Assembly (NCBI GenBank): GCA_965178125.1
Contig: OZ237767.1
Span: 558,001-622,000 of the forward strand
From: Bilabrum cf. latius
Lineage: Eukaryota
Direction: 5' to 3'
DNA length: 64,000 nucleotides
Positions 28,539 through 60,700 of the stretch are shown piece after piece (the stretch's first letter is position 1; the number at the start of each line of letters is the position of its first letter). The position numbers and the translations under genes were made by a program. The notes below the pieces were generated by a model. The model was not told where the DNA came from. It saw only the letters and a program-made list of their open reading frames with translations, and did no database searches.

Positions 28539-30901
28539 CGAGCTCACTCTGGGCGAGGCTGTGGTGAAGTAGCTGGAGCTCCCAGCAGCCTGGGCTGCTC
28601 CTCCGTGGGGCTGGAGCCAACGCAGCGGAGCCGGATCGATGGGGGAAAAAAGAAAATTTCGAGCTCACTCTGGGCGAGGCTGTGGTGAAGTAGCTGGAGC
28701 TCCCAGCAGCCTGGGCTGCTCCTCCGTGGGGCTGAAGCCAACGCAGCGGAGCCGGATCGATGGGGGAAAAAAGAAAATTTCGAGCTCACTCTGGGCGAGG
28801 CTGTGGTGAAGTAGCTGGAGCTCCCAGCAGCCTGGGCTGCTCCTCCGTGGGGCTGGAGCCAACGCAGCGGAGCCGGATCGATGGGGGAAAAAAGAAAATT
28901 TCGAGCTCACTCTGGGCGAGGCTGTGGTGAAGTAGCTGGAGCTCCCAGCAGCCTGGGCTGCTCCTCCGTGGGGCTGGAGCCAACGCAGCGGAGCCGGATC
29001 GATGGGGGAAAAAAGAAAATTTCGAGCTCACTCTGGGCGAGGCTGTGGTGAAGTAGCTGGAGCTCCCAGCAGCCTGGGCTGCTCCTCCGTGGGGCTGGAG
29101 CCAACGCAGCGGAGCCGGATCGATGGGGGAAAAAAGAAAATTTCGAGCTCACTCTGGGCGAGGCTGTGGTGAAGTAGCTGGAGCTCCCAGCAGCCTGGGC
29201 TGCTCCTCCGTGGGGCTGGAGCCAACGCAGCGGAGCCGGATCGATGGGGGAAAAAAGAAAATTTCGAGCTCACTCTGGGCGAGGCTGTGGTGAAGTAGCT
29301 GGAGCTCCCAGCAGCCTGGGCTGCTCCTCCGTGGGGCTGGAGCCAACGCAGCGGAGCCGGATCGATGGGGGAAAAAAGAAAATTTCGAGCTCACTCTGGG
29401 CGAGGCTGTGGTGAAGTAGCTGGAGCTCCCAGCAGCCTGGGCCGCTCCTCCGTGGGGCTGGAGCCAACGCAGCGGAGCCGGATCGATGGGGGAAAAAAGA
29501 AAATTTCGAGCTCACTCTGGGCGAGGCTGTGGTGAAGTAGCTGGAGCTCCCAGCAACCTGGGCTGCTCCTCCGTGGGGCTGGAGCCAACGCAGCGGAGCC
29601 GGATCGATGGGGGAAAAAAGAAAATTTCGAGCTCACTCTGGGCGAGGCTGTGGTGAAGTAGCTGGAGCTCCCAGCAGCCTGGGCTGCTCCTCCGTGGGGC
29701 TGGAGCCAACGCAGCGGAGCCGGATCGATGGGGGAAAAAAGAAAATTTCGAGCTCACTCTGGGCGAGGCTGTGGTGAAGTAGCTGGAGCTCCCAGCAGCC
29801 TGGGCTGCTCCTCCGTGGGGCTGGAGCCAACGCAGCGGAGCCGGATCGATGGGGGAAAAAAGAAAATTTCGAGCTCACTCTTATATTCACTCTGGGCGAG
29901 GCTGTGGTGAAGTAGCTGGAGCTCCCAGCAGCCTGGGCCGCTCCTCCGTGGGGCTGGAGCCAACGCAGCGGAGCCGGATCGATGGGGGAAAAAAGAAAAT
30001 TTCGAGCTCACTCTGGGCGAGGCTGTGGTGAAGTAGCTGGAGCTCCCAGCAGCCTGGGCTGCTCCTCCGTGGGGCTGGAGCCAACGCAGCGGAGCCGGAT
30101 CGATGGGGGAAAAAAGAAAATTTCGAGCTCACTCTGGGCGAGGCTGTGGTGAAGTAGCTGGAGCTCCCAGCAGCCTGGGCTGCTCCTCCGTGGGGCTGGA
30201 GCCAACGCAGCGGAGCCGGATCGATGGGGGAAAAAAGAAAATTTCGAGCTCACTCTGGGCGAGGCTGTGGTGAAGTAGCTGGAGCTCCCAGCAGCCTGGG
30301 CTGCTCCTCCGTGGGGCTGGAGCCAACGCAGCGGAGCCGGATCGATGGGGGAAAAAAGAAAATTTCGAGCTCACTCTGGGCGAGGCTGTGGTGAAGTAGC
30401 TGGAGCTCCCAGCAGCCTGGGCTGCTCCTCCGTGGGGCTGGAGCCAACGCAGCGGAGCCGGATCGATGGGGGAAAAAAGAAAATTCCGAGCTCACTCTGG
30501 GCGAGGCTGTGGTGAAGTAGCTGGAGCTCCCAGCAGCCTGGGCTGCTCCTCCGTGGGGCTGGAGCCAACGCAGCGGAGCCGGATCGATGGGGGAAAAAAG
30601 AAAATTTCGAGCTCACTCTGGGCGAGGCTGTGGTGAAGTAGCTGGAGCTCCCAGCAGCCTGGGCCGCTCCTCCGTGGGGCTGGAGCCAACGCAGCGGAGC
30701 CGGATCGATGGGGGAAAAAAGAAAATTTCGAGCTCACTCTGGGCGAGGCTGTGGTGAAGTAGCTGGAGCTCCCAGCAACCTGGGCTGCTCCTCCGTGGGG
30801 CTGGAGCCAACGCAGCGGAGCCGGATCGATGGGGGAAAAAAGAAAATTTCGAGCTCACTCTGGGCGAGGCTGTGGTGAAGTAGCTGGAGCTCCCAGCAGC
30901 C
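28539..30901. repeat. 121-bp tandem array, left arm (~19 copies); unit contains the tRNA-Cys 3' end plus oligo-T terminator
   Basis: Unit gagctcactctgggcgaggctgtgg...gatgggggaaaaaagaaaatttc. Copies differ by a few SNPs; one 12-bp insertion at 29881. Confidence 0.97.
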
Positions 30902-31326
30902 CCCCCCGCTACGGTAATAAATAAATTTATTCCCTTCGGTTAAGGATGATTAACATCATCAATAATTACGTTCAGTCAGAGCTAAAGCTCTTCCCTCTCT
31001 CCATTCCTTTTCTCGCTAGTCGCTCCAAAAGTCAAGGTGAGCCTCTTCATACTGCTACTTCATATAACTGCTTTATCCTTCTAATTATAGAAAATCAATT
31101 ATATATAAAACTCTATACGATGACCATATCCACAAATTGCGTATTAGTATATGTATTATTTAGCAAAACGTGGATGTAGCCCTCTTGTGAAGGTGTTCTG
31201 GGACTCTAGCCATTTTCTAGCCAAAAGTTCCATCACTTTATGGGACTCCATTATTCAACCTTCTAAACTACCTTCATTATACCCCCTTATCCTCGCTTAT
31301 ACCTTCACAAATGGAACAAACGCGCT
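30902..31326 (+). repeat. Left terminal inverted repeat (~425 bp)
   Basis: Reverse complement of 57329-57749 apart from a few SNPs and a swapped hairpin at 30945-30960. Confidence 0.95.
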
Positions 31327-31348
31327 TTTATTTTTAAATTGTTATAGA

Positions 31349-31367
31349 GCGTTTAAATTGACTTAAA
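31349..31367 (+). promoter_or_regulatory. Virophage promoter-like motif, consensus GCGTTTAAAATGACTTAAA (representative copy)
   Basis: Related copies end 28-31 nt upstream of the ATGs at 31396, 32505, 45900, 46332, 47751(-), 48267, 51588(-) and 54424(-). Partial copies precede 45027 and 47844. Confidence 0.75.
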
Positions 31368-31395
31368 AAATATATTTATTATAGGTATATACAGA

Positions 31396-32415
31396 ATGGA
31401 ATTATTAAAATGGGAAAATGGAACCTTGAAAGCTACACAACCAAAAGAATATTATGAACGAAATGGATTTTAGGTTAATTTTGAAGGGAAAACCTATCAT
31501 ATAGCAATGGATAAAGATTATATAAGATGGTTTTTGAAGGACTATAAACCTTATGAAATAATAACAACATTCATAACAGATATGAGTGAAGTATTCAATG
31601 GATAGGATAAATTTAATGAACCTTTGAATACTTGGGATGTTTCAAATGTTAAGGATATGAGTTTAATGTTTCAAAGTTGTAGAAGCTTTAATCAACCATT
31701 GAGCAATTGGGATGTTTCTAAGGTTGAAAAAATGTCGTCTATGTTCTATTTTTGTTCTAAATTCAATCAATCATTGAACGATTGGAATGTTAGTAATGTT
31801 AGGGATATGAGTGGTATGTTTGGTTCTTGTTCAAGATTCAATCAACCATTGGATAATTGGGATGTTTCTAAGGTTGAAAATATGTCCTCTATGTTTAATG
31901 GATGTTGGAACTTCAATCAACCATTGGATAATTGGGATGTTTCTAACGTTGAAAATATGTCCTCTATGTTCCATTATTCTGAATTCAATCAATCATTGAA
32001 CGATTGGAATGTTAGTAATGTTAGGGATATGAGTGGTATGTTTGGTTCTTGTTCAAGATTCAATCAACCATTGGGTAATTGGGATGTTTCTAACGTTGAA
32101 TATATATCCTCTATGTTTAATGGATGTTAGAACTTCAATCAACCATTGGATAATTGGGATGTTTCCAATGTCTAGAGTAAGTTTTAGATGTTAAAAGATT
32201 GTGAAAGTTTCAATCATTTAGAGAACGGTATTAAGGGTATAAGAATTGATTATTCTACAACATTGATACCGTTGTTAGAAAGACGAAAACATAAAACCAT
32301 TAAAAAAACAAAGAAATATAGAGAGGAATTAATTGCTAAAGCGTGGCACCCTTCAAGATTAGATTGGGTATTGGATAACGAGGAGCGAGACGAGATAGAG
32401 GATAATTTTAATTAA
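31396..32415 (+). CDS. DUF285/BspA-like repeat protein 1 (~339 aa, TAG read through)
   Basis: 22-aa repeats FNQPLxNWDVSxVxxMSxMF; C-terminal EELIAKAWHPSRL; TAA stop. Confidence 0.85.
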
Positions 32416-32504
32416 TAGAATTTTAATAATATTAATGATTATTTAATATTATAGTGTGAGTTTAAAAAGGCTTAAATAATATATTTATTATAGGTATATA
32501 CAGA

Positions 32505-33302
32505 ATGGAAGTTTTAAAATGGGAAAATGGAACCTTGAAAGCTACAAAACCAAAAGAATATTATTTTAGAAAAGATAATTATATTGTGAAATTTGAAGGT
32601 AAAACATATTACGTAGCTAAAGATACAGATTTTCTTCTTCACGCATTGTAGTTTTTGAAACCTGAATTATTAGTAACAACATTTATTACGAATATGTTAA
32701 ACCTATTTGATAATATGATAATTGAATCACCAATAAATTCATGGGATGTTTCAAATGTTAAAGATATGACCGATATGTTTTATGGGTGTCATTCGTTTAA
32801 TCAACCTTTAAATAACTGGGATGTTTCAAATGTTGAAGATATGGGCGGTATGTTTAATGAGTGTCATTCGTTTAACCAACCATTGAATAATTGGAATGTT
32901 TCAAATGTTGAAGATATGAGTGAAATGTTTAATGATTGCCATTCATTTAACCAACCATTGAATAATTGGAACGTTTCAAATGTTAAAGATATGTGCGGAA
33001 TGTTTTATGATTGCCATTCACTAAATCAACCTTTAAATAACTGGGATGTTTCAAATGTTGTAGATATGGAATGTATGTTTTCTAATTGTTTTAGTTTTAA
33101 TCATTTGGAGAATGGAATTAAGGATGAACGAATTGATTATTCCACGACATTAATCCCATCATTAGAAGAGCGGAAAGATGAAACAATTGAACAAACTAAA
33201 AAAATCAAAGAAGAATTAATTTCTAGAGCGTGGCACCCTTCAAGATTAGATTGGGTATTGGATAACGAGGAGCGAGACGAGATAGAGGATAATTTTAATT
33301 AA
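32505..33302 (+). CDS. DUF285/BspA-like repeat protein 2, tandem paralog (~265 aa)
   Basis: Same N-terminus (MExLKWENGTLKAT), fewer repeats, and identical last ~75 nt to gene 1. Confidence 0.85.
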
Positions 33303-33343
33303 GTTTTATTATAATAATTATTTTATTTTTAATTATTATAGAT

Positions 33344-33691
33344 ATGGTTTATATTGTATCATTAGCGTGGGGTAGTGAATGTTATCATACACACTGGGTT
33401 AAAAAGTTTAATAATAAGGAAGAAGCACAAAAGCTTTATACTGACACTTTAAAAGACCAAGCGAAGAGAGTTGTATGGAGTGATAATTGGAAAGAAGAAT
33501 ATAAAAAGGAAGCAGAAGGTCAAGTTGAAAGTTTTAATGATGACAACGGAACCGATTTCAAACTATTGAAAGAAGAAGAAATTGATAACCTTACTAATAG
33601 TGAATTAGAAGAGTATATAGAATTATCGTTGATGTATGCTGAAGAATATGATGATTCAAATGAATGGTTTGATATTGAGTTTTTAGAATAA
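33344..33691 (+). CDS. Acidic hypothetical virophage protein (115 aa)
   Basis: Clean ATG-TAA ORF with an AT-rich leader. Confidence 0.7.
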   Translation: MVYIVSLAWGSECYHTHWVKKFNNKEEAQKLYTDTLKDQAKRVVWSDNWKEEYKKEAEGQVESFNDDNGTDFKLLKEEEIDNLTNSELEEYIELSLMYAEEYDDSNEWFDIEFLE

Positions 33692-33738
33692 ATTTTTGAA
33701 TTTTAATAATACTATTATTATTATTATTAATATATAGT

Positions 33739-34155
33739 TTAATCCTTGGGTAAGATAAAGTCATCTATAGCCTTTTTGATGATGTCATCCTTCTATTTCT
33801 TTATTGATTTCTCAATGGCTTCCTTCTCTTTTTTAACCAATAAATCTATGGCTACGGTATCATTTAAGTCTTCACTTAGGCATTCAACATTTTCTTCATT
33901 TAGCTTGTGTATTATTCTAAATGGTTGAACGAAATATGATATATAATCAATTTCTTCAAATTCACTTAATACTCTTTTTTTAAGTCGTTCATTACAATCT
34001 GGAGGGACACGAAGGTCATCAAGTTGAAAATGCTTTAACATTGATGGTTTGTGCTTCTCAACATAAATATATACGATTGACATAAAAGTGGAGATGCTTT
34101 TATTCTTGAGTACCTTTTTAACGTTGACACTTGATAACAGGAACTTAACGAACAT
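33739..34155 (-). CDS. Hypothetical virophage protein (138 aa)
   Basis: Track ORF extended through the TAG at 33793 to TAA at 33739. Confidence 0.65.
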
Positions 34156-34256
34156 ATTATAATGTAGCCCAATATTTTATTTTAATTTATTAAACCCGTT
34201 TTATAAAATTCTATAGTTTAAAAAAAATAAAAAAAATATCTAGTAATTATATATAA

Positions 34257-34628
34257 ATGGATAAATTACAAAAAGTGATTAATACCCGCTCAAAGTTAAA
34301 GAATGAATTTCTTGATATTGTAGAAGACTTTAAGAAGACCAATCGTGAATTAGAACAAAAGTTAAAGCAACTAAAAATAAAAGAGACAGAATTAAAAAAT
34401 AAAGTGAATAGTAAATTAACCGCTCTTAATGTGGAATATAAAGAGGTGAGCAAAAAGAAAGCAGAAGCTATAGCCCCTTATATGAAAACTTTAAAAGCAT
34501 TAAAAGGAAGGATGACTGGATTGACAAAGAAAGACAAGGACAAGCTGATTGACGTTCATCAAGAGATAAGGAAAATTAAAGAATAGATTAAAGTAAATGA
34601 AGCTATTAATAGGCTTTTTAATTCGTGA
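34257..34628 (+). CDS. Coiled-coil hypothetical protein (123 aa)
   Basis: K/E-rich heptads; extended through the TAG at 34584 to TGA. Confidence 0.65.
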
Positions 34629-34668
34629 ATAATTAATTTATAAATATTAAAATCAATTAATATATATA

Positions 34669-35826
34669 ATGAGTAAGAGAGGAAAGAAAAAAGATAATGA
34701 TATTAATGAGTCAAGTTTTGGATTTAATACGAAGTCTATCACGAACGATTTAATGAAGCCGATAAAGAAACCGAAAGGATTGAATTATGTTAAATATTAT
34801 AAACCTACTAAAGAGGGGCTTATCCAATAGGCTGATTTATTGTATCTCCCTTACGCTACCAAGAACGATTCAAAATATTTATTAGTTGTGATAGATACGA
34901 GCGGGTTAGCGTTAGATTTTGAAGAGTTAAAGGATAGAGGGGCGGAGGATGTGATAAAAGCTTTTCAAAAAATCTATAAAAGAAATTATTTAATGAAACC
35001 TAAAATGATACGAACAGATAAAGGGGGAGAATTTGATAATGAATTATTTAAAGAATATCTAAAGAAGAATAAGATAGAGCATATATTTTCAAGAGTGAAG
35101 CGTAAATCGTAGATGGCTTTAGTGGAGAGATTGAATGAGGAAATAGGGAGAGCTATATTTTATTATTTGAATTCATAGGAGATAAGAACGGGGACAACTA
35201 TCACGAACTGGAGACATTTAATACCAAAATTGAGGGAGATATTAAACGAGCGTTATAAAACAAGATAGGAAATGTTGAATAAGAAAAGGGAGAATCTACC
35301 ATATATACCGCCTAGATGTTAGGGTGAAGTATGTGATGTATTAAATGAGGGTGAAATGGTAAGAATAGGATTAGATTATCCTAGAAGTATAGAAGGGATA
35401 AAGGAAACCGGAGCATTTAGGGCGGGAGATATTAAATATAGCGTAAAGCCTTATAAAATTGAAAGAGTAATAATAAAACCAGATAACCCCCCATTATATA
35501 AAATTGAGGGCATACCCTATACATACTTTAATAGAGATTAGTTGTTATTAGCATCTAAACCATACGAGAATAAAGCACAAGATATATTTATAATTGAAAA
35601 ATTGATAAGAAAGAATAAAAATAATACATACAGGGTTAAATGGAAAGATTCATATGTTGATGAGGCTACTAAAAGAAAATATTAGAATGATATAGGTAAA
35701 ATAATAAAGAGAAGAAAGAATCAAGAGGGACAAGATGAATATTTAATTCAATGGAAGATAACAACGGAGCCGGCTAAAAATATATCAAAAACTCTAAAGG
35801 ATAATTTTAATAATAAGACTAAATAA
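34669..35826 (+). CDS. Retroviral-type (rve) DDE integrase with C-terminal chromodomain-like region (~385 aa)
   Basis: IQ*ADLLYLP (D), KYLLVVID, IRTDKGGEFDN (D), KS*MALVERLN (E), GEMVRI; C-terminal IEKLI..YRVKWK and IGKII..EYLIQWK..TEP. * = TAG. Confidence 0.92.
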
Positions 35827-35862
35827 ATATTATTAATTTATATTTTAATAATATTCAAATAA

Positions 35863-36480
35863 TTACACTCTGTAGGTCATATTATAGACTGACATAACCA
35901 TCTATGAAAGCCCTTCAAACGTATTATACACGCTATACTCATTAGGGTTAAAACTTTTCAAAAATTCAGCTCGTGAATGTCTTGCTACATCCTTATCTTC
36001 ATTATCTAAATCTTTATGGATTTTGCTATACAGTTTATCGCTGGGTATAGCTACGCATATGCTGGATTTTTTGAATATTTCTTGTGCTAGTTCAAAATCA
36101 CTTGTTAAAAAGACTGCTCTATGTTCTGCTTTCTATAACCAATTTTTCTTTACAGACTCAATACTTTTTTTCATAAGTTCAAATTTTAATAATTTAGCCG
36201 TTGATAAGTCCCCTCTTCGTTCTGCTTCGTTTAGGTATAAAACCTGTTTGGTGTCAGCATTAACTTTAAGGACTTCATCTAAATCAACTAATAGAATATT
36301 CGGGTCTATAGACGTTAAACTTTTGTTAAGTGAACTTTTACCTCCTTTTCGTGGAAGGACTAAACACAATTTTTTACGATTCGCAAGTGAGGAACATAAG
36401 TTCCAAAGGAAGCATCCCGCATATCCTAGAGGAACCAACACCCCACCAACCGTGCTTGCTGTTGCTACTAACTCTGCCAT
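35863..36480 (-). CDS. P-loop NTPase/kinase-like protein with hydrophobic N-terminus (~205 aa)
   Basis: LCLVLPRKGGKSSL (degenerate Walker A), ILLVDLDE. Open through two TAGs to TAA at 35863. Confidence 0.55.
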
Positions 36481-36525
36481 TATATATATCTATACAAAAC
36501 AAAATATTATTATCCTATAGACTAA

Positions 36526-38604
36526 TTATTTTAATAATCTTAGTTTTTCAAAGTGTTGATATAAGATTTGTTTTACCTTGTCCTTCACATTATGATTACC
36601 TTTACCACCGGCTATATTAAAATATTCTTGTTCAATTTGTCCTCCTTTATGCTTGCCACATCCACAACTACCGCCCCTATTCTATGTTTTTATTTTCTAA
36701 TCAATAATTAAATTAATAGCTTTCATTAACATATTATAAGGGTCTTTATTTCCAAAACCTTGAGCTGGTGGTGAATATGTCCATTGAGGCTTCCCGCTTA
36801 ATTCATATCCCGTATCGTTTAGTCTTGATTTTGCTAATGTTCTATCACTTCTGGTTGCTCTTCCTTCTGTATTTGCTCTAGCTACTAAAGACCTAACAGC
36901 ATCAGTTGATAAATTAGGTTGTAAGACTCCGGCTTTAAGCCTTCGTATAATATATTTTAAAGTGTTAATTGTTGGGCTGGCGTCTGTTGGATTTATTCCT
37001 CTTGCTTTTAACTATGATAATATTTCATTTTTATTGCCTTTAGCATTTATTGATTGTCCTATTGATTTGGCTATTTCATCATCTGTTTTCTGTGGTTCTT
37101 GTGGTTCTGCTGGTTCTTGTGCTGGTTCTGCTGGTTGTGCTTGTTGTGCTGGTTCTACGGCTTCTCCATCTCTTGGTTCTTCATCTGGGGCTCCCCTCCG
37201 TTCTCTAGCTTGTCTTTCTTTTTCTTCTTGTTGTCTTTGTGCTTCATCTCGTTCTGCCTGTGCTTGTCTTTGTCTGAATTGAACTTCTGTAAGTTGTCTT
37301 CCAAATTCATCTGTAATAGGTTCTCCATCTTCATCTACTGCCATCGCTTCACCTTTTCCTCTGTCTTGACCTGCGGGGGGTGCTTGTGGTTGTGAGCCTG
37401 TTTTTCCTGTTAAATAACTGATACCATCCATAACCGATTGTCCTAAAGAACCAAATGTGCTTTGTTGTTGTTCTGGTGATTGTCCTTGTTCTTGTTCTGG
37501 TGATTGTCCTTGTGGTTCTGGTGATGCTTGTAAGAATCCACTAGGTGGAACTGGTGCGGGTGATACTTTTGAAAACTAGCCTGATAAATTTCTACTGGCG
37601 TTCTCCCCTTCTTCTTCTTGTCCTGATGATTGTGATGCCTCTTGTTCTTGTGCTTTTTGTTTAAGTTCTGATAATTTCTTCTAAGCACTTTTTATAAAAT
37701 CAACTTTAGACCGTCCTTTTACACCTTTAACATTTGACTCTCTAAGTATTTTTGCTAGTTCGGTTTTCTTTGGTGCTTTTCTACTACTTGAAGGATTGGC
37801 GTTTGCTACTCTTTCAAGTGCTTCAATTTGTTCTTGTAGTTCTGGGCTTAATGCTTCTTGTGGTGTTGGAGGGGGTTTTGGTCTTGGTTCTGGTGGCGGT
37901 TGCGGGTTATCTGGTTCAGGTCTATCAGGTTGCGGGTCATCTCTTTGCTATTGTTGAACGGCTTCAGGAGGATTTAAAACATCCTATAAAGCATTAACAG
38001 CGTCATCAACTTTTGTTAATTGTGAAACATTCTATCCTTGGGGGGTTTTCGTGATTCCAGCTTGTCGTAAAGCGTTTCGTATTTGAACTGCTTTTAATCC
38101 TCTCATATCGCTTGGTAATTGTTCTAATACTGCGTCCCGTTGTGCTTTAGTGGTTGTAAATAATCTCATATTAATATTTTTAATTCCATCAAATACCTTT
38201 TTCTTATCGCTTGCTGGTCCTACTACCTACCTTACATTAATATTATTAATGGTATCTACAACCTATCTTTTTAATTTATCCGGTAAATCTGGATTTCTAT
38301 TTATAAATGATTGTAAATTTTCTATTTGATAAATTGGTAATTCTTTTTTAGCGTTCATAGTCTTAATATTTTTAATAATATTTTCAATTCCTTGTTGTTG
38401 TTGTTGTCTTTCAATTCTAACATCAATAGGAACATAATTAGCACGAAGGAAAGCATCATCTTTTAGGGTTTTTCTTCTGGCTTCTGCTTCATCTTCTTCT
38501 TGCTATATCATTAATCTAACTTGTGGGTCATTTTGTATCCTAAGTTGATTAGACCGTTTCTACATAATACCCTTCAGTAAATCATTAATTGTATTGTTTG
38601 ACAT
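36526..38604 (-). CDS. Large Gln/Glu/Pro-rich protein (~692 aa), possible virion core precursor
   Basis: A single frame once TAG is sense (includes CAA CAA TAG CAA). C-terminal di-glycine motifs NRGG, HKGG, IAGG. Confidence 0.7.
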
Positions 38605-38681
38605 TGTATATATATATTATTAATGATATAATTAATAATTTATAAACTTAAGAGATAATATGTCAATTGGTAGGCTGTCTT

Positions 38682-39062
38682 TTAAAATGAAATATCCTTA
38701 TTCATAAGGTCGTGTTTCTTTATAAAGGAATTGCTGGCTTTCATAGTCATTCCCTTTTGACGGCACCATTTCATTAATTTATCCCTCTTTAACTATTTAG
38801 CACTACGGGGCTTTTTAGCTTTAGGGGCTTTCTTTGAACCCTTCTTTTTTCCTCCAATATAATTAACACTACCAGCAAGGACATTAGCTGAGCCGGCAAT
38901 CAAAGCTCCCCCTTTTGTCTTTCCTTTTGTGGTTGCGTTTAATATTTGGTTTGCGGTATCTTCAACCATTTTATCAATTTCTTTTTTATAATCATTTCTG
39001 TTTATTCCAAGATGATGAAGGCTTTTATTTGTCATATCATTTATGCTCTATTTAACGCTCAT
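38682..39062 (-). CDS. Small basic core/DNA-condensing protein-like (~126 aa)
   Basis: TKGG..IAGS..LAGS..YIGG followed by a Lys-rich tract and RDKLMKWCRQKGMTMKASNSFIKKHDL, resembling a motif recalled from virophage core proteins. Confidence 0.6.
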
Positions 39063-39119
39063 ATTATTGTATATATTGGGTATATATAATTTGTTATTTA
39101 TCCATACTTATAATATATA

Positions 39120-39935: not shown

Positions 39936-40027
39936 CTTTTTTTGTGAGGAAGGATAGAAGAAGGAACCAACTTAATATTTTAAACCCGTGTGAATAAATG
40001 GTTTATTTTATTTTATTATTATATATA

Positions 40028-46883: not shown

Positions 46884-46949
46884 TAATTAGATATTAATGA
46901 TAAAATTAATATTTAACATATTGATGATGGGAGTTAGAAGGGGCTATAT

Positions 46950-49960: not shown

Positions 49961-50668
49961 ATGAATGATAATATACCTAATTATGTTAATAGTCCTAAAT
50001 TATGGCGTCAGGCAGTTGAGAAAGTAAATAGAACGTATAAAAAGCCTTCAGCTTATCGTTCATTAGCATATTTTGCTCGTTATAAAAAACTAGGGGGGAC
50101 ATATGATAAAATTAAATTAAATGAAGCATAGAAAAATTTACGACGATGGAAATTAGAGGATTGGAAGAATTAGAAGGGAGAAAAGGGATATTAGGAAAAA
50201 GGAGATATATATAGACCCACTAAAAGAATAAATAAAGAGACCCCTTTAACCTTTGGAGAATTAGACACGGAAGAAATAGAGGAAGCAATGAAGGAAAAAT
50301 TTAATAACGGACACGTGAAATCATTTAGACCTAAACCAGTTTTTAATTTATATAAATCAACTAAATCAAATAAAAAATATATGATTAAAGTAGTTCAAGG
50401 TAATAATATTCTGTTTACTGTTCATTTTGGTGGAATTAAGAATGATGGTACCCCTTATATGGACTTTATACAATATTATAATAAAGATGGAGAGAAGGAA
50501 GCAAACCGTAAAAAGAAAAATTATATTAAAAGACATTCAATAAATGAAGACTTTAAAGACTATAAATCCCCCGCTTTTTGGTCTAGGTTTGTATTATGGA
50601 ATGAACCAACATTAAAAGATAGCTTTATGGACGCCGTAGATAGAGCTAAAAAATTAATGAAAGTTTAA
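49961..50668 (+). CDS. Fusion of two small giant-virus/virophage domains (DUF5872-like + DUF5754-like), ~235 aa
   Basis: PSAYRS..YKKLGGTY..LRRWKLEDWKN*KG..IYRPTKRINKETPLTFGEL, then STKSNKKYM..VHFG..YIKRH..SPAFWSRFVLW. Family names are from memory. Confidence 0.65.
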
Positions 50669-50721: not shown

Positions 50722-51243
50722 ATGAGCTTAGCAAGATTATCGCAACCTAATGATATATCTATTCAATGTAAGAATGTCGCAACTGGTAGATTAGATAGTA
50801 GTGGTCTATATGTAAATGCTGTTGTGAATAGTAGTGATGTAGTTGTTAGCAACGCAGGATTACATCTTGACAGTAAGGGTATTTCTTACATCACTTCGGG
50901 TCAAGCTTTACGATTCGGTGCCAATACCGCATCTGCTGGTTTAGTTATGAGTTTTGATGAAGACGGTCACGAATGTGATTTAACCGTAAAAGGTGAAGTA
51001 GTAGCAAATAACACCGTAGCGCATAAAGGAAGGGTAAATTGGAGTGGTGGAGGTGCTACTGAATTCGCTAGTGTTCCGGGTATGACTTCTAGTGATTTGG
51101 TTTTTATTACTACAATCACCCCCGCCAGTGAGCCGGTTGAATTTTCCCACGTAGTAGCAGGAACCGATGGATTTACGATTCATTTAACGGGTGGTAATTC
51201 CTCTAATGATTGGTCGGCTAATTGGATGGTTATTAAAGGTTGA
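50722..51243 (+). CDS. Beta-rich putative fibre/spike structural protein (173 aa)
   Basis: G/S/T/V-rich ORF; C-terminal domain ..TDGFTIHL..NWMVIKG resembles fibre-tip domains. Confidence 0.5.
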   Translation: MSLARLSQPNDISIQCKNVATGRLDSSGLYVNAVVNSSDVVVSNAGLHLDSKGISYITSGQALRFGANTASAGLVMSFDEDGHECDLTVKGEVVANNTVAHKGRVNWSGGGATEFASVPGMTSSDLVFITTITPASEPVEFSHVVAGTDGFTIHLTGGNSSNDWSANWMVIKG

Positions 51244-51285: not shown

Positions 51286-51588
51286 TTAAATTGATATCTC
51301 CGGTGGTTTAATCCCGCTATTAAGCAGGGTTTGATTAAGTTTCTTGATATATTCCTCTAGTATATCCTTTTTTGGTTCTTTGAGATTTTTTTGGTGTTTC
51401 TTCGTTCGTTCGTGTCTCGTTCTGTCCTTCCTTCTATAATAACAATCACACACATCGCATTTAACTTTTTCATTTCCTCTAGCTAAATATTTTTTATTCC
51501 ATTTGTCTTTGTTTGTTTTGTAATATTCCTACATATAATTAATTTTTGGTTGCTCCTCTGTATTGCTTGAACTCTAAATATCGCTCAT
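51286..51588 (-). CDS. C2H2-type zinc-finger protein (100 aa)
   Basis: KVKCDVCDCYY..RTRHERTKKH; promoter motif 28 nt upstream. Confidence 0.75.
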
Positions 51589-51646: not shown

Positions 51647-54424
51647 TTAAATATTCTGATCTAATCGTTCGTTGGATTCCTTGTATATGTCCTTCATTTC
51701 GGGATACTAATATTTATAAACTTCATCAAATAATTCTTTCTCCTTGGTGAATTTAATTCTTAATTCTCTATCCTTTTTATCCTTTTTATTCCCCATACTC
51801 CAGGAGGTTTTAATATTTCCAAATAACTACTTATATAATTTTACTATTGCCCCGTGTAATTCACTATCGGTTTCTATTGGCTTCTATAATCTCGCCCCGC
51901 TTACTTCTACATATCTTTTACCCATTTCTATATATTTAATGGATTTCTCATTTTTACGTGTATAACTTAAATCAAATTTATTCAATTTAAGCGTCTATAA
52001 CATCTCCTACAATATGATTATTTTATTCTTTGTACTTTTTGCTTTCTCATCCTTAAAATCCTTTCTATCCTTTAATTCTGTCATTAGTTTATATTTATCT
52101 TTTCTCTTAAAATTAGCATAATTAAAATAATTCATTAATTTGTAATTATCAATTAATAACATTTTAATATCCTCCGTTATGGCTGTCTCTGGTAGCCCTA
52201 AAATTTCAATTCTTCTTTTTATATGGTCGTTCTCTACATCAAATGAATCAATCTATTCTTGTAGTACCTCCATTGTCGCCTCTTTCATCTGCTATTTATT
52301 CATTCGTTGTGGTAATTCCTTATCCACCTATACATCGGCACCCCTGTTTTTAAGAATAAGCTATAAATGAATATATTTATTTGTTTCGTATGTATCACAT
52401 TTGAAATTATATAATTTCTTGAGTGGTAAATAAACCTTATATGATGCCTCTATCATTGCTTTATGGGCTATCTCTTCATCATCTTCTCCCTCAAAAATAT
52501 CAATGTCAATATCATTCTCCTACATTATCCTTTTTTCGTATTTTTCTAATTTAGTATATAAATCTGTCTATGCGTTAATTTCCATATTTAAGGTCGTCTA
52601 TACCTCCTTTAAATTCTCATATCTTGGATAAATGGATTTTACATCTTCAAAATATATATTCATATATTCGGGATTTCTACATCTTGCCAGTTGCTACATC
52701 ATCTACGGCGGTAGAATCGTTTTTCCTTTATATAATCCATACACTGGGCGCTCCATTACACTATCTAATCCGTAAATGACTTTAGGACTAAATATAATTT
52801 TATCATATTTATCTAAGCTCACATCCTCATCAGGTAATAAATCACTAGTAATTAATTTAACGTCCTCTATACCATCTTTACATAACATTTTATAAAATGT
52901 ATCTGCGTTCTTCTTGCTATCACACGCCAGTATAAATTTATCTTCACTTTTTAATTTATCGTAAAATTTCTATTGGTCTTTTTCAAAATATACTTTTACG
53001 TCCTTAAAATGCTTATATTTATTCTTAATGAAGCTAAATTCTACTCCAGCACATTTTAAAAATTTCATCGCTATCTGGGATATGTCAGCATCTACAGCAA
53101 TAAACTATTTACACGTCCTTATCATTTTTAAAATAATAAATAATACAAGAACCCTATTATTATTCATCGTGGTAGAACTTAATATATGCTCTATAATGCT
53201 ATTGAATTCATCCAAAAATACGATGTATTTAGAAAAATCATAATTCACAATTTGGGGGATACTTTCCGGCGTAATAATAAGAGACTATCCAAAATCAAAA
53301 GTTTTATTCTGGTAGAACTCACATTTAATATCTTCATTTAAAAAGCTCTCGTATTGCTCTGTGCCTAAACATACACGGGATACAATGGATAAGAACGGCG
53401 TTTGAACCTGTTTAATGTATTTCTTAAATGCTGTTGTTTTACCTGTTCCTGTATCACTTTTTACCACATAATTATATTCATATTTAAAAAATCGTTCGGG
53501 CTTCTCTATATCATCTAATTTAGGTTTATTAATTTCTGTATACCCGTTAATATTCTCGTCATAAGGACGATAATAACACTTTGAAATATACTTATCTTTC
53601 ACAAATGCCTTTAAACTTTTATCATTCTAAATTATTGAATTAACTAAATTAAAGGTTTTTAACTTATCAAAATAATGGATAGAGTTCCACACCTTGTTAT
53701 TTTTGTGGTAGTCGTATTTATTGCCCTTCTTGCTCCACTCCTACCACTCCTTCTTAAATCCTAAATATTTACTCGCTAGGGTTGCTTTATACCAATCACT
53801 ATAATTATTTAAATATTTCTTATCTAGTCTATTTAATATAATTGACCAGTCTTTACCATTTAAAATGAATTTCATCATACAGTTATTCACATCTTGATTA
53901 TCAATTTTTGATATCCTTTTACTCGCCCCTTTTACGTTGGATTTCTTAGAGGATTTAATAATATACTTTTCATAAAATTTATAAAGCTCCTTAGGACATT
54001 TTTTTATTTCTACATTATTAATAACTTCGTATTTTGACCCATTTATGCCACTTGGTGGTGCCACTACATAAGCCCCATCATTCCTAATATCAACGTCAAT
54101 ATCTCTATTGGTGGTAGTTAATATATTCTAATCATATTTAAAATATAGATGATACCCTCCACCCGCTGTTTTAACCGTGAATGTGTTGAACCGCTTCACA
54201 AAGTCATCTGAAAATTTCTTGATGAATAAATGCTCCTTCTTATCGCTCCATTTATATGAATCAATATCAAACACGGTTATATTATTAATTTCTCCGGTGA
54301 TAATAGCCATATTCTGATTATTAAATCGTTTAGGCTCGGGTTTGGTGAGATATCGCCAGCTTTTAACATCAGGTATTTTTTGATTGTGCTTGATGGGGAA
54401 ACTAACGAGGTTTTTATTATTCAT
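51647..54424 (-). CDS. Prim-Pol (AEP) + PriCT-2 + UL9-like superfamily-2 helicase fusion (~925 aa)
   Basis: NMAIITG..VFDID, TAGGGYHLYF, DIRNDGAYVVAPPS; YSDWYK..W*EWSK; KSDTGTGKTT, SIVSR, FLDEFNS, VDAD, FSPKVIYGLD, MM*QLARCRN. Track fragments share one frame. Confidence 0.88.
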
Positions 54425-54579
54425 TTTCTATATATATTATTAGAAATATATTTTTAAACTATTTTAAACGCCATATTTAATTATAGAGGGCTTAAAGGGG
54501 CTATAATAATTAATGAAGGTAAAAGGTGATTTTTGCCATTTAGCCCTAAAAAATAGATTGTGATATGAATGGTGTATTT

Positions 54580-54775
54580 TAACACCTTCTAAAGTGATGG
54601 AACTATTTTTAAAAATTATCTAAAGGTCCCATACCACCTTCACAAGAGGCCCTACATCCACGTTTTGCTAGAAATACTATATAATTATACGCAATTTGTG
54701 GATATAGCCATCGTATAGATTTTAATATAGCGGTTATATTAAAATATTTTATTAAATTCTAGCCCGTTTATTAAG
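54580..54775 (-). repeat. Internal inverted copy of the TIR-related element (core 54656-54703)
   Basis: accttcacaagaggccctacatccacgttttgcta...tacgcaatttgtggatatagccatcgta. Confidence 0.85.
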
Positions 54776-54787
54776 TTGTAGGGGCTT

Positions 54788-55558
54788 TTAATTATAGATA
54801 TCTTGTAGTTTTTCGTGTTCGGCCTTCACATCAAGGGTCAAATATACCCGGCTATTCCAAAACTCAGGGCTGTTGATATCATCGCTATTATTAATATTAT
54901 AATTCCTTTTTATTTTTGATATCATAATTTGTAATTTACGAGGGCTAAACTATTTCTTAAGAGCCTCTACATCGGGTAAATTAATTTCACCAAAAAATAC
55001 ATCATTTCCATTTACGGACACTTTATACCTATAGTCTCCGTCTTCTAGCCTTTCTAGGTCTCCTATTATTTGTTTCTCTTCCTCAGGTATCATTTCATCA
55101 TCACTTTCTGCTTCTATCTAGTCTTGTTCGGTACTAACGCTGTTTATTTCACTTTCACTGTCAGGCTCCATACCGGTAAATTTTTCATCTATTGCGGTCT
55201 ATCTAATTAATTCTGGCGGTTGTAAATCATCTACATCATTATAAATTTTATTATTCTGTGGTTTATAGTCATTAAATTTATCTAGAATGTATGTTTGGTT
55301 AATTTCAAGCTGGTCGTTATTATCGTGTTGTATCTTCTGTTTCTCTTCTTTCTTGGGTTTTTTGACGGCTTTTTTCTCTTTAATATCACTAACTATATTT
55401 TTATTAATTAATTTAGACGTGGAAAACCTTCCACCTAAATCTACATACGTAGTAATGGTCTCTAAAATTTTTTGCGTACTATCTGTAATATGGTCTGTAG
55501 CCTTATAAATCTGCTTCATTAGGACGGGATTTTCAATGACATAATTATTAAAGTTCAT
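54788..55558 (-). CDS. Acidic hypothetical virophage protein (~256 aa)
   Basis: Track ORF extended through TAGs to TAA at 54788. Confidence 0.65.
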
Positions 55559-55870: not shown

Positions 55871-56338
55871 ATGGCCGGGGTTTCTACAGATGTTAATGAT
55901 GAAGTAATGAAGGCGCTTATTGCTGGTATTGAAGACATTGGAGCAGTGGGCGAGGAGTGGGACAGGGTTCTTCAATCTTTTGACGGCGAGACTGCCACGG
56001 TGAAGCTAGGCGAGGAAATCCAGACCTATGAGATTATCACCGAAGAAGAAGCAGACAAACGTTTGGACGACCACGCTACAGAGACGCTTGCTTCCTTCGT
56101 TCCTGCGTTCCTCTCGCGCTTCCTGCCTTGCGATGCCGATATCATAAGCACCGCTACCGCTGACGCGAACCACAGCGAGGCTTTAAGCGCCCTTCTTAAG
56201 TCATTTATAGTGGCTTAGGGGCGCTGGGACGACCTCATTCAGGCCTGTAAAGATGAGGACGGGCTGGGACATTTTCTAAACAGCTACGACGGGAGCACGA
56301 GCGAGCAAAATGGATACGTGGTGATGCGTGTGGATTGA
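55871..56338 (+). CDS. Hypothetical protein (155 aa) in the higher-GC terminal cassette
   Basis: ATG at 55871, one TAG (56216), C-terminal EDGLGHFLNSYDG..YVVMRVD, TGA. Confidence 0.7.
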
Positions 56339-57215: not shown

Positions 57216-57328
57216 ATCTATTGTTTTAGGCTGGTGAAGTGATCAGCTGGCCTACAGCGTCATCGTTCCGGGGTGTATTGAACTGTGGCGCTTGTGGTAT
57301 TGCGATGACGAGTGTAGCAAGTTGCTGT

Positions 57329-57749
57329 AGCGCGTTTGTTCCATTTGTGAAGGTATAAGCGAGGATAAGGGGGTATAATGAAGGTAGTTTAGAAGGTTGA
57401 ATAATGGAGTCCCATAAAGTGATGGAACTTTTGGCTAGAAAATGGCTAGAGTCCCATAACACCTTCACAAGAGGGCTACATCCACGTTTTGCTAAATAAT
57501 ACATATACTAATACGCAATTTGTGGATATGGTCATCGTATAGAGTTTTATATATAATTGATTTTCTATAATTAGAAGGATAAAGCAGTTATATGAAGTAG
57601 CAGTATGAAGAGGCTCACCTTGACTTTTGGAGCGACTAGCGACAAAAGGAATGGAGAGAGGGAAGAGCTTTAGCTCTGACTGAACGTAATTATTGAAACT
57701 TGTTTCCTTAACCGAAGGGAATAAATTTATTTATTACCGTAGCGGGGGG
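57329..57749 (-). repeat. Right terminal inverted repeat (~421 bp)
   Basis: Reverse complement of 30902-31326. Confidence 0.95.
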
Positions 57750-60700
57750 CAGCCTGGGCTGCTCCTCCGTGGGGCTGGAGCCAACGCAGCGGAGCCGGAT
57801 CGATGGGGGAAAAAAGAAAATTTCGAGCTCACTCTTATATTCACTCTGGGCGAGGCTGTGGTGAAGTAGCTGGAGCTCCCAGCAGCCTGGGCCGCTCCTC
57901 CGTGGGGCTGGAGCCAACGCAGCGGAGCCGGATCGATGGGGGAAAAAAGAAAATTTCGAGCTCACTCTGGGCGAGGCTGTGGTGAAGTAGCTGGAGCTCC
58001 CAGCAGCCTGGGCTGCTCCTCCGTGGGGCTGGAGCCAACGCAGCGGAGCCGGATCGATGGGGGAAAAAAGAAAATTTCGAGCTCACTCTGGGCGAGGCTG
58101 TGGTGAAGTAGCTGGAGCTCCCAGCAGCCTGGGCCGCTCCTCCGTGGGGCTGGAGCCAACGCAGCGGAGCCGGATCGATGGGGGAAAAAAGAAAATTTCG
58201 AGCTCACTCTGGGCGAGGCTGTGGTGAAGTAGCTGGAGCTCCCAGCAGCCTGGGCTGCTCCTCCGTGGGGCTGGAGCCAACGCAGCGGAGCCGGATCGAT
58301 GGGGGAAAAAAGAAAATTTCGAGCTCACTCTGGGCGAGGCTGTGGTGAAGTAGCTGGAGCTCCCAGCAGCCTGGGCCGCTCCTCCGTGGGGCTGGAGCCA
58401 ACGCAGCGGAGCCGGATCGATGGGGGAAAAAAGAAAATTTCGAGCTCACTCTGGGCGAGGCTGTGGTGAAGTAGCTGGAGCTCCCAGCAGCCTGGGCTGC
58501 TCCTCCGTGGGGCTGGAGCCAACGCAGCGGAGCCGGATCGATGGGGGAAAAAAGAAAATTCCGAGCTCACTCTGGGCGAGGCTGTGGTGAAGTAGCTGGA
58601 GCTCCCAGCAACCTGGGCTGCTCCTCCGTGGGGCTGGAGCCAACGCAGCGGAGCCGGATCGATGGGGGAAAAAAGAAAATTCCGAGCTCACTCTGGGCGA
58701 GGCTGTGGTGAAGTAGCTGGAGCTCCCAGCAGCCTGGGCTGCTCCTCCGTGGGGCTGGAGCCAACGCAGCGGAGCCGGATCGATGGGGGAAAAAAGAAAA
58801 TTTCGAGCTCACTCTGGGCGAGGCTGTGGTGAAGTAGCTGGAGCTCCCAGCAACCTGGGCTGCTCCTCCGTGGGGCTGGAGCCAACGCAGCGGAGCCGGA
58901 TCGATGGGGGAAAAAAGAAAATTTCGAGCTCACTCTTATATTCACTCTGGGCGAGGCTGTGGTGAAGTAGCTGGAGCTCCCAGCAGCCTGGGCTGCTCCT
59001 CCGTGGGGCTGGAGCCAACGCAGCGGAGCCGGATCGATGGGGGAAAAAAGAAAATTTCGAGCTCACTCTTATATTCACTCTGGGCGAGGCTGTGGTGAAG
59101 TAGCTGGAGCTCCCAGCAGCCTGGGCCGCTCCTCCGTGGGGCTGGAGCCAACGCAGCGGAGCCGGATCGATGGGGGAAAAAAGAAAATTTCGAGCTCACT
59201 CTGGGCGAGGCTGTGGTGAAGTAGCTGGAGCTCCCAGCAGCCTGGGCTGCTCCTCCGTGGGGCTGGAGCCAACGCAGCGGAGCCGGATCGATGGGGGAAA
59301 AAAGAAAATTTCGAGCTCACTCTGGGCGAGGCTGTGGTGAAGTAGCTGGAGCTCCCAGCAGCCTGGGCTGCTCCTCCGTGGGGCTGGAGCCAACGCAGCG
59401 GAGCCGGATCGATGGGGGAAAAAAGAAAATTTCGAGCTCACTCTGGGCGAGGCTGTGGTGAAGTAGCTGGAGCTCCCAGCAGCCTGGGCCGCTCCTCCGT
59501 GGGGCTGGAGCCAACGCAGCGGAGCCGGATCGATGGGGGAAAAAAGAAAATTCCGAGCTCACTCTGGGCGAGGCTGTGGTGAAGTAGCTGGAGCTCCCAG
59601 CAGCCTGGGCTGCTCCTCCGTGGGGCTGGAGCCAACGCAGCGGAGCCGGATCGATGGGGGAAAAAAGAAAATTTCGAGCTCACTCTGGGCGAGGCTGTGG
59701 TGAAGTAGCTGGAGCTCCCAGCAGCCTGGGCTGCTCCTCCGTGGGGCTGGAGCCAACGCAGCGGAGCCGGATCGATGGGGGAAAAAAGAAAATTTCGAGC
59801 TCACTCTGGGCGAGGCTGTGGTGAAGTAGCTGGAGCTCCCAGCAACCTGGGCTGCTCCTCCGTGGGGCTGGAGCCAACGCAGCGGAGCCGGATCGATGGG
59901 GGAAAAAAGAAAATTTCGAGCTCACTCTGGGCGAGGCTGTGGTGAAGTAGCTGGAGCTCCCAGCAACCTGGGCTGCTCCTCCGTGGGGCTGGAGCCAACG
60001 CAGCGGAGCCGGATCGATGGGGGAAAAAAGAAAATTTCGAGCTCACTCTGGGCGAGGCTGTGGTGAAGTAGCTGGAGCTCCCAGCAACCTGGGCTGCTCC
60101 TCCGTGGGGCTGGAGCCAACGCAGCGGAGCCGGATCGATGGGGGAAAAAAGAAAATTTCGAGCTCACTCTGGGCGAGGCTGTGGTGAAGTAGCTGGAGCT
60201 CCCAGCAGCCTGGGCTGCTCCTCCGTGGGGCTGGAGCCAACGCAGCGGAGCCGGATCGATGGGGGAAAAAAGAAAATTTCGAGCTCACTCTGGGCGAGGC
60301 TGTGGTGAAGTAGCTGGAGCTCCCAGCAGCCTGGGCTGCTCCTCCGTGGGGCTGGAGCCAACGCAGCGGAGCCGGATCGATGGGGGAAAAAAGAAAATTT
60401 CGAGCTCACTCTGGGCGAGGCTGTGGTGAAGTAGCTGGAGCTCCCAGCAGCCTGGGCTGCTCCTCCGTGGGGCTGGAGCCAACGCAGCGGAGCCGGATCG
60501 ATGGGGGAAAAAAGAAAATTTCGAGCTCACTCTGGGCGAGGCTGTGGTGAAGTAGCTGGAGCTCCCAGCAGCCTGGGCTGCTCCTCCGTGGGGCTGGAGC
60601 CAACGCAGCGGAGCCGGATCGATGGGGGAAAAAAGAAAATTTCGAGCTCACTCTGGGCGAGGCTGTGGTGAAGTAGCTGGAGCTCCCAGCAGCCTGGGCT

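Follow-up and report, generated by a model that had tools for sequence, protein, structure and literature searches.

A probable mavirus-like provirophage written in the TAG = glutamine code of its host, in a satellite array of Bilabrum cf. latius

The window analysed here comprises 64,000 nucleotides of the Bilabrum cf. latius assembly GCA_965178125.1 (contig OZ237767.1, positions 558,001 to 622,000, forward strand), and all coordinates refer to it. A composition scan of these 64 kb located a 27-kb AT-rich block of ~30% GC that interrupts DNA of 60-72% GC. The element proper was bounded at 30902-57749 (26,848 bp, 32.2% GC), the non-satellite host flanks having 65.3% GC, and is most probably a provirophage whose genes share with those of the host a code in which TAG specifies glutamine. 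It splits an array of a 121-bp host satellite, with 98% matches within the array. Features of the element and of its surroundings are collected in Table 1.

At the left junction the DNA reads ...GCTCCCAGCAGCC|CCCCCCGCTACGG..., with CAGCC at 30897-30901 and the element starting at 30902. The right junction reads ...CCGTAGCGGGGGG|CAGCCTGGGCTGCTCC..., the last base of the element being 57749, with CAGCC at 57750-57754 and then TGGGCTGCTCC. Deletion of the element together with one CAGCC rebuilds an intact satellite unit, ...GCTCCCAGCAGCCTGGGCTGCTCC..., as in neighbouring units, and the repeat phase is therefore preserved across the element. The target-site duplication is equally compatible with a length of 6 bp (GCAGCC), if the right tip is taken to hold five, not six, G. 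An inverted-repeat search returned a perfect 45-nt terminal arm and a 368-nt arm at 99%, and global alignment of the terminal inverted repeats (TIRs, ~425 nt) gave 2 mismatches in ~413 aligned positions. The insertion cannot be dated from the TIRs, because these, unlike long terminal repeats, are not regenerated at integration. The features expected of an endogenous mavirus-like element, namely a host-site target duplication of 5-6 bp, TIRs of great length and an integrase of rve type, were all recovered. An earlier interpretation made from the letters alone (the sequence-only reading) had described a perfect CAGCC duplication, an array phase kept across the insertion and near-identical TIRs; all three were recovered, the second by excision in silico and the third with one short divergent patch.

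Six of the seven listed sequencing runs contain 0.76-0.92 of the 31-mers sampled from 30850-40000; the six belong to two studies and carry two organism labels, and one of these studies may be the source of the window. Run X7, which has the same label as run X1 and comes from a different sample, contains next to none of the sampled words, a result that says nothing on absence. No RNA run was among those listed as containing the stretch, which in turn says nothing on expression. Two details of the array were recorded in passing. On the right side, 12 additional nt (...CTCACTCTTATATTCACTCTGGG...; ~57835-57850) are found in the first complete unit after the insertion and are missing from the other units, and a host tRNA-Cys(GCA) gene (60765-60837, minus strand) lies exactly where the 121-bp array ends (60778).

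Under the standard code no open reading frame (ORF) of the element exceeds 371 aa, and the sum over ORFs of 100 codons or more is 4,848 codons. When TAG alone was freed, ORFs of 929, 696, 659 and 509 codons appeared. Reading through TAG yields 27 ORFs (96-925 aa) that amount to 7,493 codons and 84% of the element. Their in-frame TAGs number 108, and the ORFs terminate at TAA (19) or TGA (8) and never at TAG. TAG accounts for 905 of the 3,986 stop triplets in all six frames of the element, so random decay would give mainly TAA interruptions, of which there are none. Alignments run through these codons: that of the primase-helicase to a 933-aa database protein (P0001) crosses 20 TAGs at 48% identity and 99% coverage, and homolog alignments span every TAG of the major capsid protein (MCP, 8), penton (5), protease (8), ATPase (3) and integrase (7), so that at least 51 TAGs are passed in six hallmark genes. 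The gene content is intelligible only when TAG is taken as an amino acid. TAGs are distributed over all gene classes. Class-specific enrichment was considered and rejected: TAG makes up ~45% of glutamine codons in early and ~40% in morphogenesis genes, with no switch-like pattern. The sequence-only reading had counted ~28 ORFs without frameshifts, which agrees with the 27 obtained with TAG as a sense codon and fails under the standard code, where 371 aa is the limit; it had hinted at retranslation and left unstated that host and element share a TAG = glutamine code. With TAG as glutamine, every hallmark gene is open and of full length.

The identity of the encoded residue was examined in alignment columns that face TAG. 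In the primase-helicase alignment (61 sequences), TAG position 577 corresponds to Q in 60/60 homologs and position 440 to Q in 36/60, Q is the plurality at position 574 (17/60), and Q is enriched 4.8-fold over background across the helicase TAG columns. In the protease, two of the eight TAG positions (99 and 140) correspond to Q both in mavirus PRO and in the other standard-code homolog. Log-odds summed over 26 TAG columns were +10.4 bits for Q and -15.5 for K, the next best residue. Among virophage relatives in IMG/VR, Q is the commonest residue opposite TAG (25% of 287 pairs); as a control in the same relatives, Q stands opposite CAA/CAG in 18%, E opposite GAA/GAG in 27% and K opposite AAA/AAG in 41%. 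No in-frame stop occurs among 10,179 aligned residues of these relatives, which are therefore not recoded. Overall, glutamine alone has positive support as the residue specified by TAG. The glutamine-type codons of the element are CAA (193), TAG (108) and CAG (28), so that TAG provides one third of them, compared with ~8% in host genes of the window. With this share and no ORF ending in TAG, the element is translatable only in cells that read TAG as glutamine. The best explanation is that the virophage evolved inside such a code.

Host ORFs were called with TAA and TGA as sole stops. Five of them, together 6,714 codons and with one counted at ~2,832 codons, contain 21 in-frame TAGs, no TAA and no TGA. 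Frames of such length without TAA or TGA in GC-rich DNA are coding, and the host TAGs are therefore sense codons. The reassignment concerns TAG only and is of the NCBI table 15 type: TAG lies in frame in conserved genes, and TAA and TGA terminate. The locus is best explained by a GC-rich, intron-poor eukaryotic host in which TAG is glutamine and TAA and TGA are stops. A glutaminyl-tRNA synthetase gene (1078 to ~3600, minus strand) is intronless and without internal TAG; its product matches human GlnRS structures (E 4e-154) with anticodon-binding domains present, and is the enzyme that would need to charge a tRNA-Gln(CUA). Elsewhere in the left flank, a 156/300-bp tandem repeat (7258-9809) lies within a long host ORF (5512-10185, minus strand), which specifies a repetitive Ser/Gly/Ala/Pro-rich protein of ~1,558 codons with nine in-frame TAGs.

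Within the element, a morphogenesis block of ATPase, protease, penton and MCP genes was assigned as follows. The packaging ATPase, of FtsK/HerA type and adjacent to the protease gene, gave no Pfam family above cut-off; it is similar over its full length to the genes in the same position on two IMG/VR virophage contigs, L002 (27% identity over 374 aa, E 5e-24) and L003 (E 1e-26). 'PRO [Cafeteriavirus-dependent mavirus]' aligns with 98% of the cysteine protease at 41% identity (E 1.6e-30). The penton matches the mavirus minor capsid structure 6g41 (E 1.2e-23). For the MCP, which is of the virophage double jelly-roll type, a single-sequence phmmer search reached mavirus MCP 6g45 at E 2.5e-8, and a profile built with 25 relatives gave E 9.5e-118 for 6g45 and 1.2e-34 for Sputnik V20 (3j26). 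A search of 1.84 billion representatives gave the MCP 55 relatives with E of 1e-3 or lower, of which the closest full-length sequence is 32% identical, and its identity to locus L001, the protease of which is nearly identical to that of mavirus, is 23%. The capsid proteins match mavirus and Sputnik structures only and do not qualify as Polinton-type. No close MCP relative was found in IMG/VR (peptide patterns), INPHARED (tblastn) or JGI metagenomes (pattern search), and INPHARED held nothing for the protease. The gene order o205(-)...NTase-ATPase-PRO-penton-MCP (NTase, nucleotidyltransferase), with INT and PolB, is common to L002 (21 kb) and L003 (17 kb).

A protease tree was computed from 40 rows, consisting of all tblastn hits of at least 110 residues and four database proteins, with shorter hits excluded. 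The element and a 91%-identical database protein fall in a clade with mavirus, L001, L002 and L003 (support 98/97), the element on a long branch of 0.85. Relatives in public assemblies (MCP fragment 99%, protease 91%, polymerase 62% identity) place the element in a small family. A further database protein, P0195 (121 aa), shares 74% identity with the N-terminal half of the protease and has an unrelated, PF01255-annotated stretch ahead of this region; it is probably a mis-called or chimeric ORF of an 873-nt contig. The sequence-only reading had proposed a complete provirophage of a distinct lineage with a syntenic ATPase-protease-penton-MCP block. The order was confirmed against the two IMG/VR contigs, the hallmark genes are all uninterrupted once TAG is translated, and the lineage is distinct within the mavirus-like clade, as seen from the tree and from the low MCP identity. 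MCP, penton, cysteine protease and packaging ATPase, the gene products expected of virophages of the mavirus type (Maveriviricetes / Lavidaviridae), are all encoded. The element is accordingly classed as a divergent, code-adapted new member of the mavirus-like endogenous virophages.

The integrase has D-D-35-E residues (read by eye), a match to retroviral integrase cores at E 2e-3 and a chromodomain-like match at its C-terminus (Chromo 1.8e-4, below cut-off). The nucleotidyltransferase was modelled with AlphaFold 2 (AF2) from a three-sequence alignment at a mean confidence score (pLDDT) of 65, and the top three Foldseek matches of the model were the Megavirus Mg662 NTase structures 4xul, 4ams and 4amq (probability 1.0, E 1e-5 to 1.6e-4). 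Fourteen database relatives were found for the polymerase, four of them with PF03175, and its conserved motifs are YDINSxYP, LNSLWG and IHTDS. The first ~130 residues of distant homologs of 600-660 aa are missing from it and from a 62%-identical relative, which is likewise short (444 aa). No exonuclease domain or motifs were evident in the short or the long polymerase forms. Longer relatives (P0182, P0183, P0188, P0190, P0191) have a conserved N-terminal GGxDxxNDCxY, absent from the element and from its 62%-identical relative. The helicase part of the primase-helicase gave weak matches to herpesvirus origin-binding protein (UL9-type, E 0.012). Several earlier gene calls were thereby substantiated: the rve integrase by its Pfam domain, the polymerase B of protein-primed type by its distant PF03175 homologs, and the proposed V21-like transferase, as a nucleotidyltransferase, by invariant motif residues and the Mg662 structures. 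Of the archaeo-eukaryotic primase (AEP) and UL9-like helicase proposed, the primase was recovered by Pfam and the UL9-type match is weak.

The remaining genes are less informative. The two DUF285 (Mycoplasma-type repeat) proteins are tandem paralogs with near-identical N-terminal heads and C-terminal tails (...AWHPSRLDWVLDNEERDEIEDNFN). Twelve ORFs stayed without assignment, PHROGs, NCBIfam and lenient Pfam searches giving sub-threshold noise only. The GC-richer 1.7-kb segment that adjoins the right TIR may be foreign cargo from a third source; an AF2 single-sequence model of its ORF at 55871-56335 had a pLDDT of 52 and was unusable.

Table 1. Position, strand and supporting details of the features of the window.
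Feature	Position	Strand	Details
Host ORF, DUF389 protein	11358-15011	+	Pfam; 1,217 codons, 6 TAG
Host ORF	15146-23797	+	2,883 codons, 10 TAG
Host ORF	23911-27753	+	1,280 codons, 4 TAG
Host 121-bp satellite, left part	28539-30901		19.4 copies; final 5 nt are the left CAGCC duplication
Left TIR	30902-31326	+	~425 nt; holds a hairpin module copy at ~31105-31270
Hairpin module, left TIR copy	31105-31270
DUF285 repeat protein a	31396-32415	+	339 aa, 5 TAG; PF03382 E 1e-86; early-type motif 31351-31367
DUF285 repeat protein b	32505-33302	+	265 aa, 1 TAG; E 8e-55; early-type motif 32460-32476
Small ORF	33344-33691	+	no family found
Small ORF	33739-34155	-	no family found
Small ORF	34257-34628	+	no family found
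rve integrase	34669-35826	+	385 aa, 7 TAG; PF00665 E 5.8e-11
Conserved virophage ORF o205	35863-36480	-	205 aa; homologs in same position in L002, L003
Q/P/E-rich protein	36526-38604	-	692 aa, 12 TAG; no family found
Basic protein	38682-39062	-	126 aa; no family found
Pol-beta-type nucleotidyltransferase	39120-39935	+	271 aa, 4 TAG; G-S...D-I-D and D114 invariant
Packaging ATPase	39998-41098	+	366 aa, 3 TAG; Walker A GKSGSGKS; phrog_2666 terminase 1e-6
Cysteine maturation protease	41107-41682	+	191 aa, 8 TAG; H73, D90, C149 conserved
Hairpin module, internal copy 1	41705-41870	+	downstream of protease gene
Penton (minor capsid) protein	42019-42972	+	317 aa, 5 TAG; PF21507 (V18/19) 5.4e-7, above cut-off
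MCP	43044-44933	+	629 aa, 8 TAG; weak MCP V20_C Pfam match; profile search
GIY-YIG-like protein	45027-45812	+	261 aa, 5 TAG; motif by eye, no Pfam match; homologs in 6 IMG/VR loci
Small ORF	45900-46190	+	early-type motif
Small ORF	46332-46883	+	early-type motif; Cys-rich
Hairpin module, internal copy 2	46930-47095		between convergent gene ends
Small ORF	47206-47751	-	early-type motif
ORF	47844-48188	+	114 aa
Short protein-primed-type DNA polymerase B	48267-49766	+	499 aa, 4 TAG; motifs YDINSHYP, LNSLWG, IHTDS
DUF5872 protein	49961-50668	+	235 aa; E 8e-21
ORF	50722-51243	+	173 aa; 41% GC, no TAG
ORF	51286-51588	-	100 aa
AEP primase (Prim-Pol + PriCT-2) fused to superfamily 2 (SF2)-type helicase	51647-54424	-	925 aa, 20 TAG; early-type motif 54453-54469
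Hairpin module, internal copy 3	54610-54775	-	just downstream of ORF 54788-55558
ORF	54788-55558	-	256 aa
Sub-terminal segment	55600-57328		~50% GC vs ~30% in the rest
ORF in sub-terminal segment	55871-56338	+	no known family
ORF in sub-terminal segment	56522-56983	-	no known family
Right TIR	57329-57749	-	sequence, inverted-repeat search, global alignment
Hairpin module, right TIR copy	~57385-57550
Right CAGCC duplication and satellite continuation	57750-60778		24.1 copies over 57841-60778
Host ORF	60984-63998	-	1,004 codons, 6 TAG

Upstream regions were searched for shared signals. The motif GTTTAAAWWRRYTTAAA, with at most one mismatch, has eight matches in the window, all eight inside the element (chance expectation 0.01). 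They are in gene orientation, each starts 44-46 nt before an ATG, and the genes that they precede are those of the polymerase and primase-helicase, the DUF285 pair, ORF 51286-51588 and three of the small ORFs. The core of the motif is AAAATGAC, once AAATTGAC, and is similar, not equal, to the early motif AAAATTGA of Megamimivirinae quoted in PMC11464507. The same paper gives the Megamimivirinae late motif as [AT]8-T[AC]T-N4-[AT]5-[AG]TA[TG]A, which with at most one mismatch was found upstream of 15 of 25 AT-rich ORFs, in every case with its start between -26 and -34; when the upstream regions were shuffled with composition preserved, the mean was 2.0 and the maximum 6. TCTATAG was tried as a mavirus-like late motif and dropped (11 matches vs 6.4 expected, not enriched). 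The upstream motifs, judged from their sequence and spacing, are of viral and not of host type, and suggest transcription by a giant virus.

The element has five copies of a conserved ~150-nt non-coding module, in which long blocks are invariant and a hairpin (ATATCCAC...GTGGATGT) occupies the centre. All three internal copies lie at gene 3' ends. RNAalifold, applied to four copies, returned 25 pairs, two with compensatory changes, the copies being too few to judge. An Rfam search of 28000-61500 found the host tRNA-Cys only and nothing for the module. Mimiviridae transcripts terminate at hairpin-forming palindromes, according to PMC4402537, which makes a terminator role plausible. The module may be a terminator/polyadenylation hairpin, or else a replication or packaging signal.

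Taken together, the locus very probably holds a full-length mavirus-like virophage that integrated itself into the 121-bp satellite of a TAG = glutamine host and would depend on a giant virus. Integration into the satellite would have been carried out by its own rve integrase. The provirus would lie silent and be woken by infection with a giant virus of the Mimiviridae kind, whose transcription machinery would read the late-type and fixed-distance promoters. Such a helper would have to be compatible with TAG = glutamine, that is, avoid TAG as a stop. The virophage would replicate via its own primase-helicase and polymerase B and would be packaged via the ATPase-protease-penton-MCP module at the expense of the giant virus, lowering its yield as mavirus does. 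Reactivation and an antiviral effect, both proposed in the sequence-only reading, are inferred from the parallel with mavirus.

Several observations weigh against this interpretation. At the termini, the TIR tips differ by one patch, 12 nt vs 8 nt, just inside the tip, and the case for integration rests on the assembly, the duplication and the phase argument. Among upstream signals, the late motif is AT-rich and degenerate, and the antisense of six upstream regions also matches it. The polymerase is short and misses an N-terminal region, so its replication competence is uncertain. Concerning the code, no tRNA-Gln(CUA) or suppressor tRNA was found in the 64-kb window, which has only the tRNA-Cys. 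Helicase TAG columns 228 and 380 are mostly D (41/60 and 40/60), 906 is R (58/60), 724 is K (37/60) and 619 is dominated by F; over the helicase alignment K (17%) is slightly above Q (13%) opposite TAG. Protease TAG position 166 faces E in the homologs that cover it (P0194, P0196, P0197), and the eight MCP TAG columns are all variable and uninformative on the code. A database protein 99% identical to the MCP with Q at four TAG positions (P0121) was dropped as code evidence: it and P0180, which is 100% identical and from the same contig, are not independent, because the database gene caller probably read TAG as Q.

The strongest alternative, which we regard as unlikely and still worth carrying, is a complete-looking provirus that can no longer be reactivated: its polymerase or termini could be defective, the satellite surroundings could silence it epigenetically, or its helper could be gone. 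The short polymerase without the N-terminal region of its distant homologs, the 8/12-nt patch at the TIR tips and the position within satellite DNA, which is often heterochromatic, all speak for it. The hallmark genes, however, are of full length relative to homologs with catalytic residues kept, and the TIRs differ otherwise at only two aligned positions. Shortness of the polymerase is better taken as a lineage trait than as a lesion, because the 62%-identical relative is equally short.

Improbable, and more so than loss of inducibility, is an autonomous Polinton/Maverick-like virus-transposon that is independent of any giant virus. It would account for an rve integrase accompanied by a polymerase B of protein-primed type, the pair that marks Polintons, together with TIRs and a 5-6 bp duplication, and no helper virus is known for the element. 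The integrase, polymerase B and TIRs are, however, also found in mavirus and do not discriminate, and the capsid, penton and protease are of virophage (mavirus/Sputnik) type. Nor would an independent transposon explain a 32% GC element in a 65% GC host with uniform AT-rich upstream motifs, the late motif at 15/25 against a shuffle mean of 2.0; host nuclear promoters are not expected to resemble these motifs.

A chimera of the assembly, in which a free virophage from a co-cultured or contaminating source was mis-joined into the satellite contig, is very improbable. Satellite arrays are difficult to assemble, but both ends adjoin the same satellite unit in phase, with the 5-bp direct duplication that the integrase predicts, and element and host share a rare code. 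That the TAGs are real stops in a dead copy altered by C-to-T (CAG-to-TAG) mutations of the repeat-induced point mutation (RIP) kind can practically be dismissed: CAG is near-absent and TAG common, as a CpA-to-TpA process would give, but the same mutations would be expected to convert CAA to TAA and TGG to TGA or TAG as well, whereas 193 CAA are retained and no TAA or TGA interrupts the 27 ORFs, unique GC-rich host genes have in-frame TAG and no TAA or TGA, and TAG is aligned with conserved glutamines in homologs.

The provirophage may be compared with known systems. Endogenous mavirus-like elements (EMALEs) are AT-rich elements of 20-30 kb with long TIRs in GC-rich protist genomes, and the mavirus duplication is 5-6 bp. 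A 2024 study by Koslova et al. (PMC10945749) reportedly deals with endogenous mavirus-like virophages and their inducibility. Like mavirus and the EMALEs of Cafeteria burkhardae, the element is AT-rich in a GC-rich protist, has long TIRs and a duplication of 5-6 bp, and encodes an rve integrase that ends in a chromodomain-like tail. It further shares with them the ATPase-protease-penton-MCP block and a GIY-YIG-like gene, and with mavirus a 41%-identical protease and structural matches of MCP and penton. It differs from mavirus in its very divergent MCP, and from mavirus-clade relatives in IMG/VR, which have no in-frame stops, in 108 TAG codons used as glutamine. Unlike mavirus and EMALEs, its replication module joins an AEP primase-SF2 helicase to a short polymerase B, and it has an extra DUF285 pair, a 692-aa low-complexity protein and eight genes with a fixed-distance upstream motif.

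With Sputnik, whose genes use a late promoter, the element shares an MCP of V20 type, a V18/19 penton, the cysteine protease, packaging ATPase and primase-helicase, and a Mimiviridae late-type motif before genes. Sputnik is more distant by MCP profile than mavirus, and to our knowledge it is without the pair of rve integrase and polymerase B. TAG-recoded phages, crAss-like and other, resemble the element in that their genes are unreadable under the standard code and use TAG as glutamine. The code of those phages differs from that of the host, and suppressor tRNAs switch it late in infection. The element, unlike them, shares the host code, has TAG across all gene classes and encodes no tRNA, none having been found in it.

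The closest parallels in code are endogenous Polinton-like viruses of Streblomastix strix, which, according to Bellas et al. (2023, PMC10120064), use the TAA/TAG = glutamine code of their host, the shared code being interpreted there as long-term virus-host association. Both cases concern an endogenous capsid-encoding DNA virus in the non-standard nuclear code of its host. As that source describes it, S. strix is an anaerobic metamonad with TAA and TAG reassigned and with MCPs of the Polinton-like virus (PLV) type; the element is of virophage type (mavirus clade), in a GC-rich host with TAG alone reassigned, and is a complete bounded integration. TAG as sense with TAA kept as stop is also the pattern of the NCBI table 15 codes and of Iotanema spirale, for which Panek et al. 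(2017, PMC5304391) give UAG = glutamine in the nuclear code. An ochre-suppressor tRNA in a metagenomic virophage was taken as a hint of host recoding in PMC6905037, and a 2026 catalogue (PMC13524828) states that metagenome-assembled genomes of giant viruses annotate better under alternative codes, code 15 being among those tested. In the literature searched, which covered few subscription journals and excluded supplements, no paper on a virophage with a reassigned stop codon was found. The nearest precedents are the PLV-type elements of S. strix and the metagenomic giant-virus genomes.

The architecture of the element is that of an ordinary provirophage; what is unusual is that it is written thoroughly in a TAG = glutamine code shared with the host. 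It has long been suggested that an altered genetic code shields cells from viruses, and endogenous virophages are regarded as inducible defences of protists against giant viruses. Since element and host both read TAG as glutamine, the changed code has not kept viruses out. A complete virophage in the rare code of its host means that a whole chain of parasites can follow a code change, and it points to a giant virus that is necessarily compatible with the same code. Standard-code gene callers would fragment the element, to 371 aa at most against proteins of up to 925 aa, and such proviruses would therefore be scored as degraded. Judging by the Mimiviridae-type promoters, the predicted helper would be TAG-recoded, or at least free of TAG stops. 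As a tentative proposal, which we consider a serious possibility, host, virophage and unseen giant virus would form a closed 'TAG=glutamine virosphere', with the virophage, resident in this code for long enough that TAG came to supply a third of its glutamine codons, locked to TAG = glutamine hosts and its hairpins borrowed as Mimiviridae-style polyadenylation signals. If true, stop-codon reassignment could for the first time be tested directly in a cell-virus-virophage system, as an antiviral firewall versus a mere shift of host ranges.

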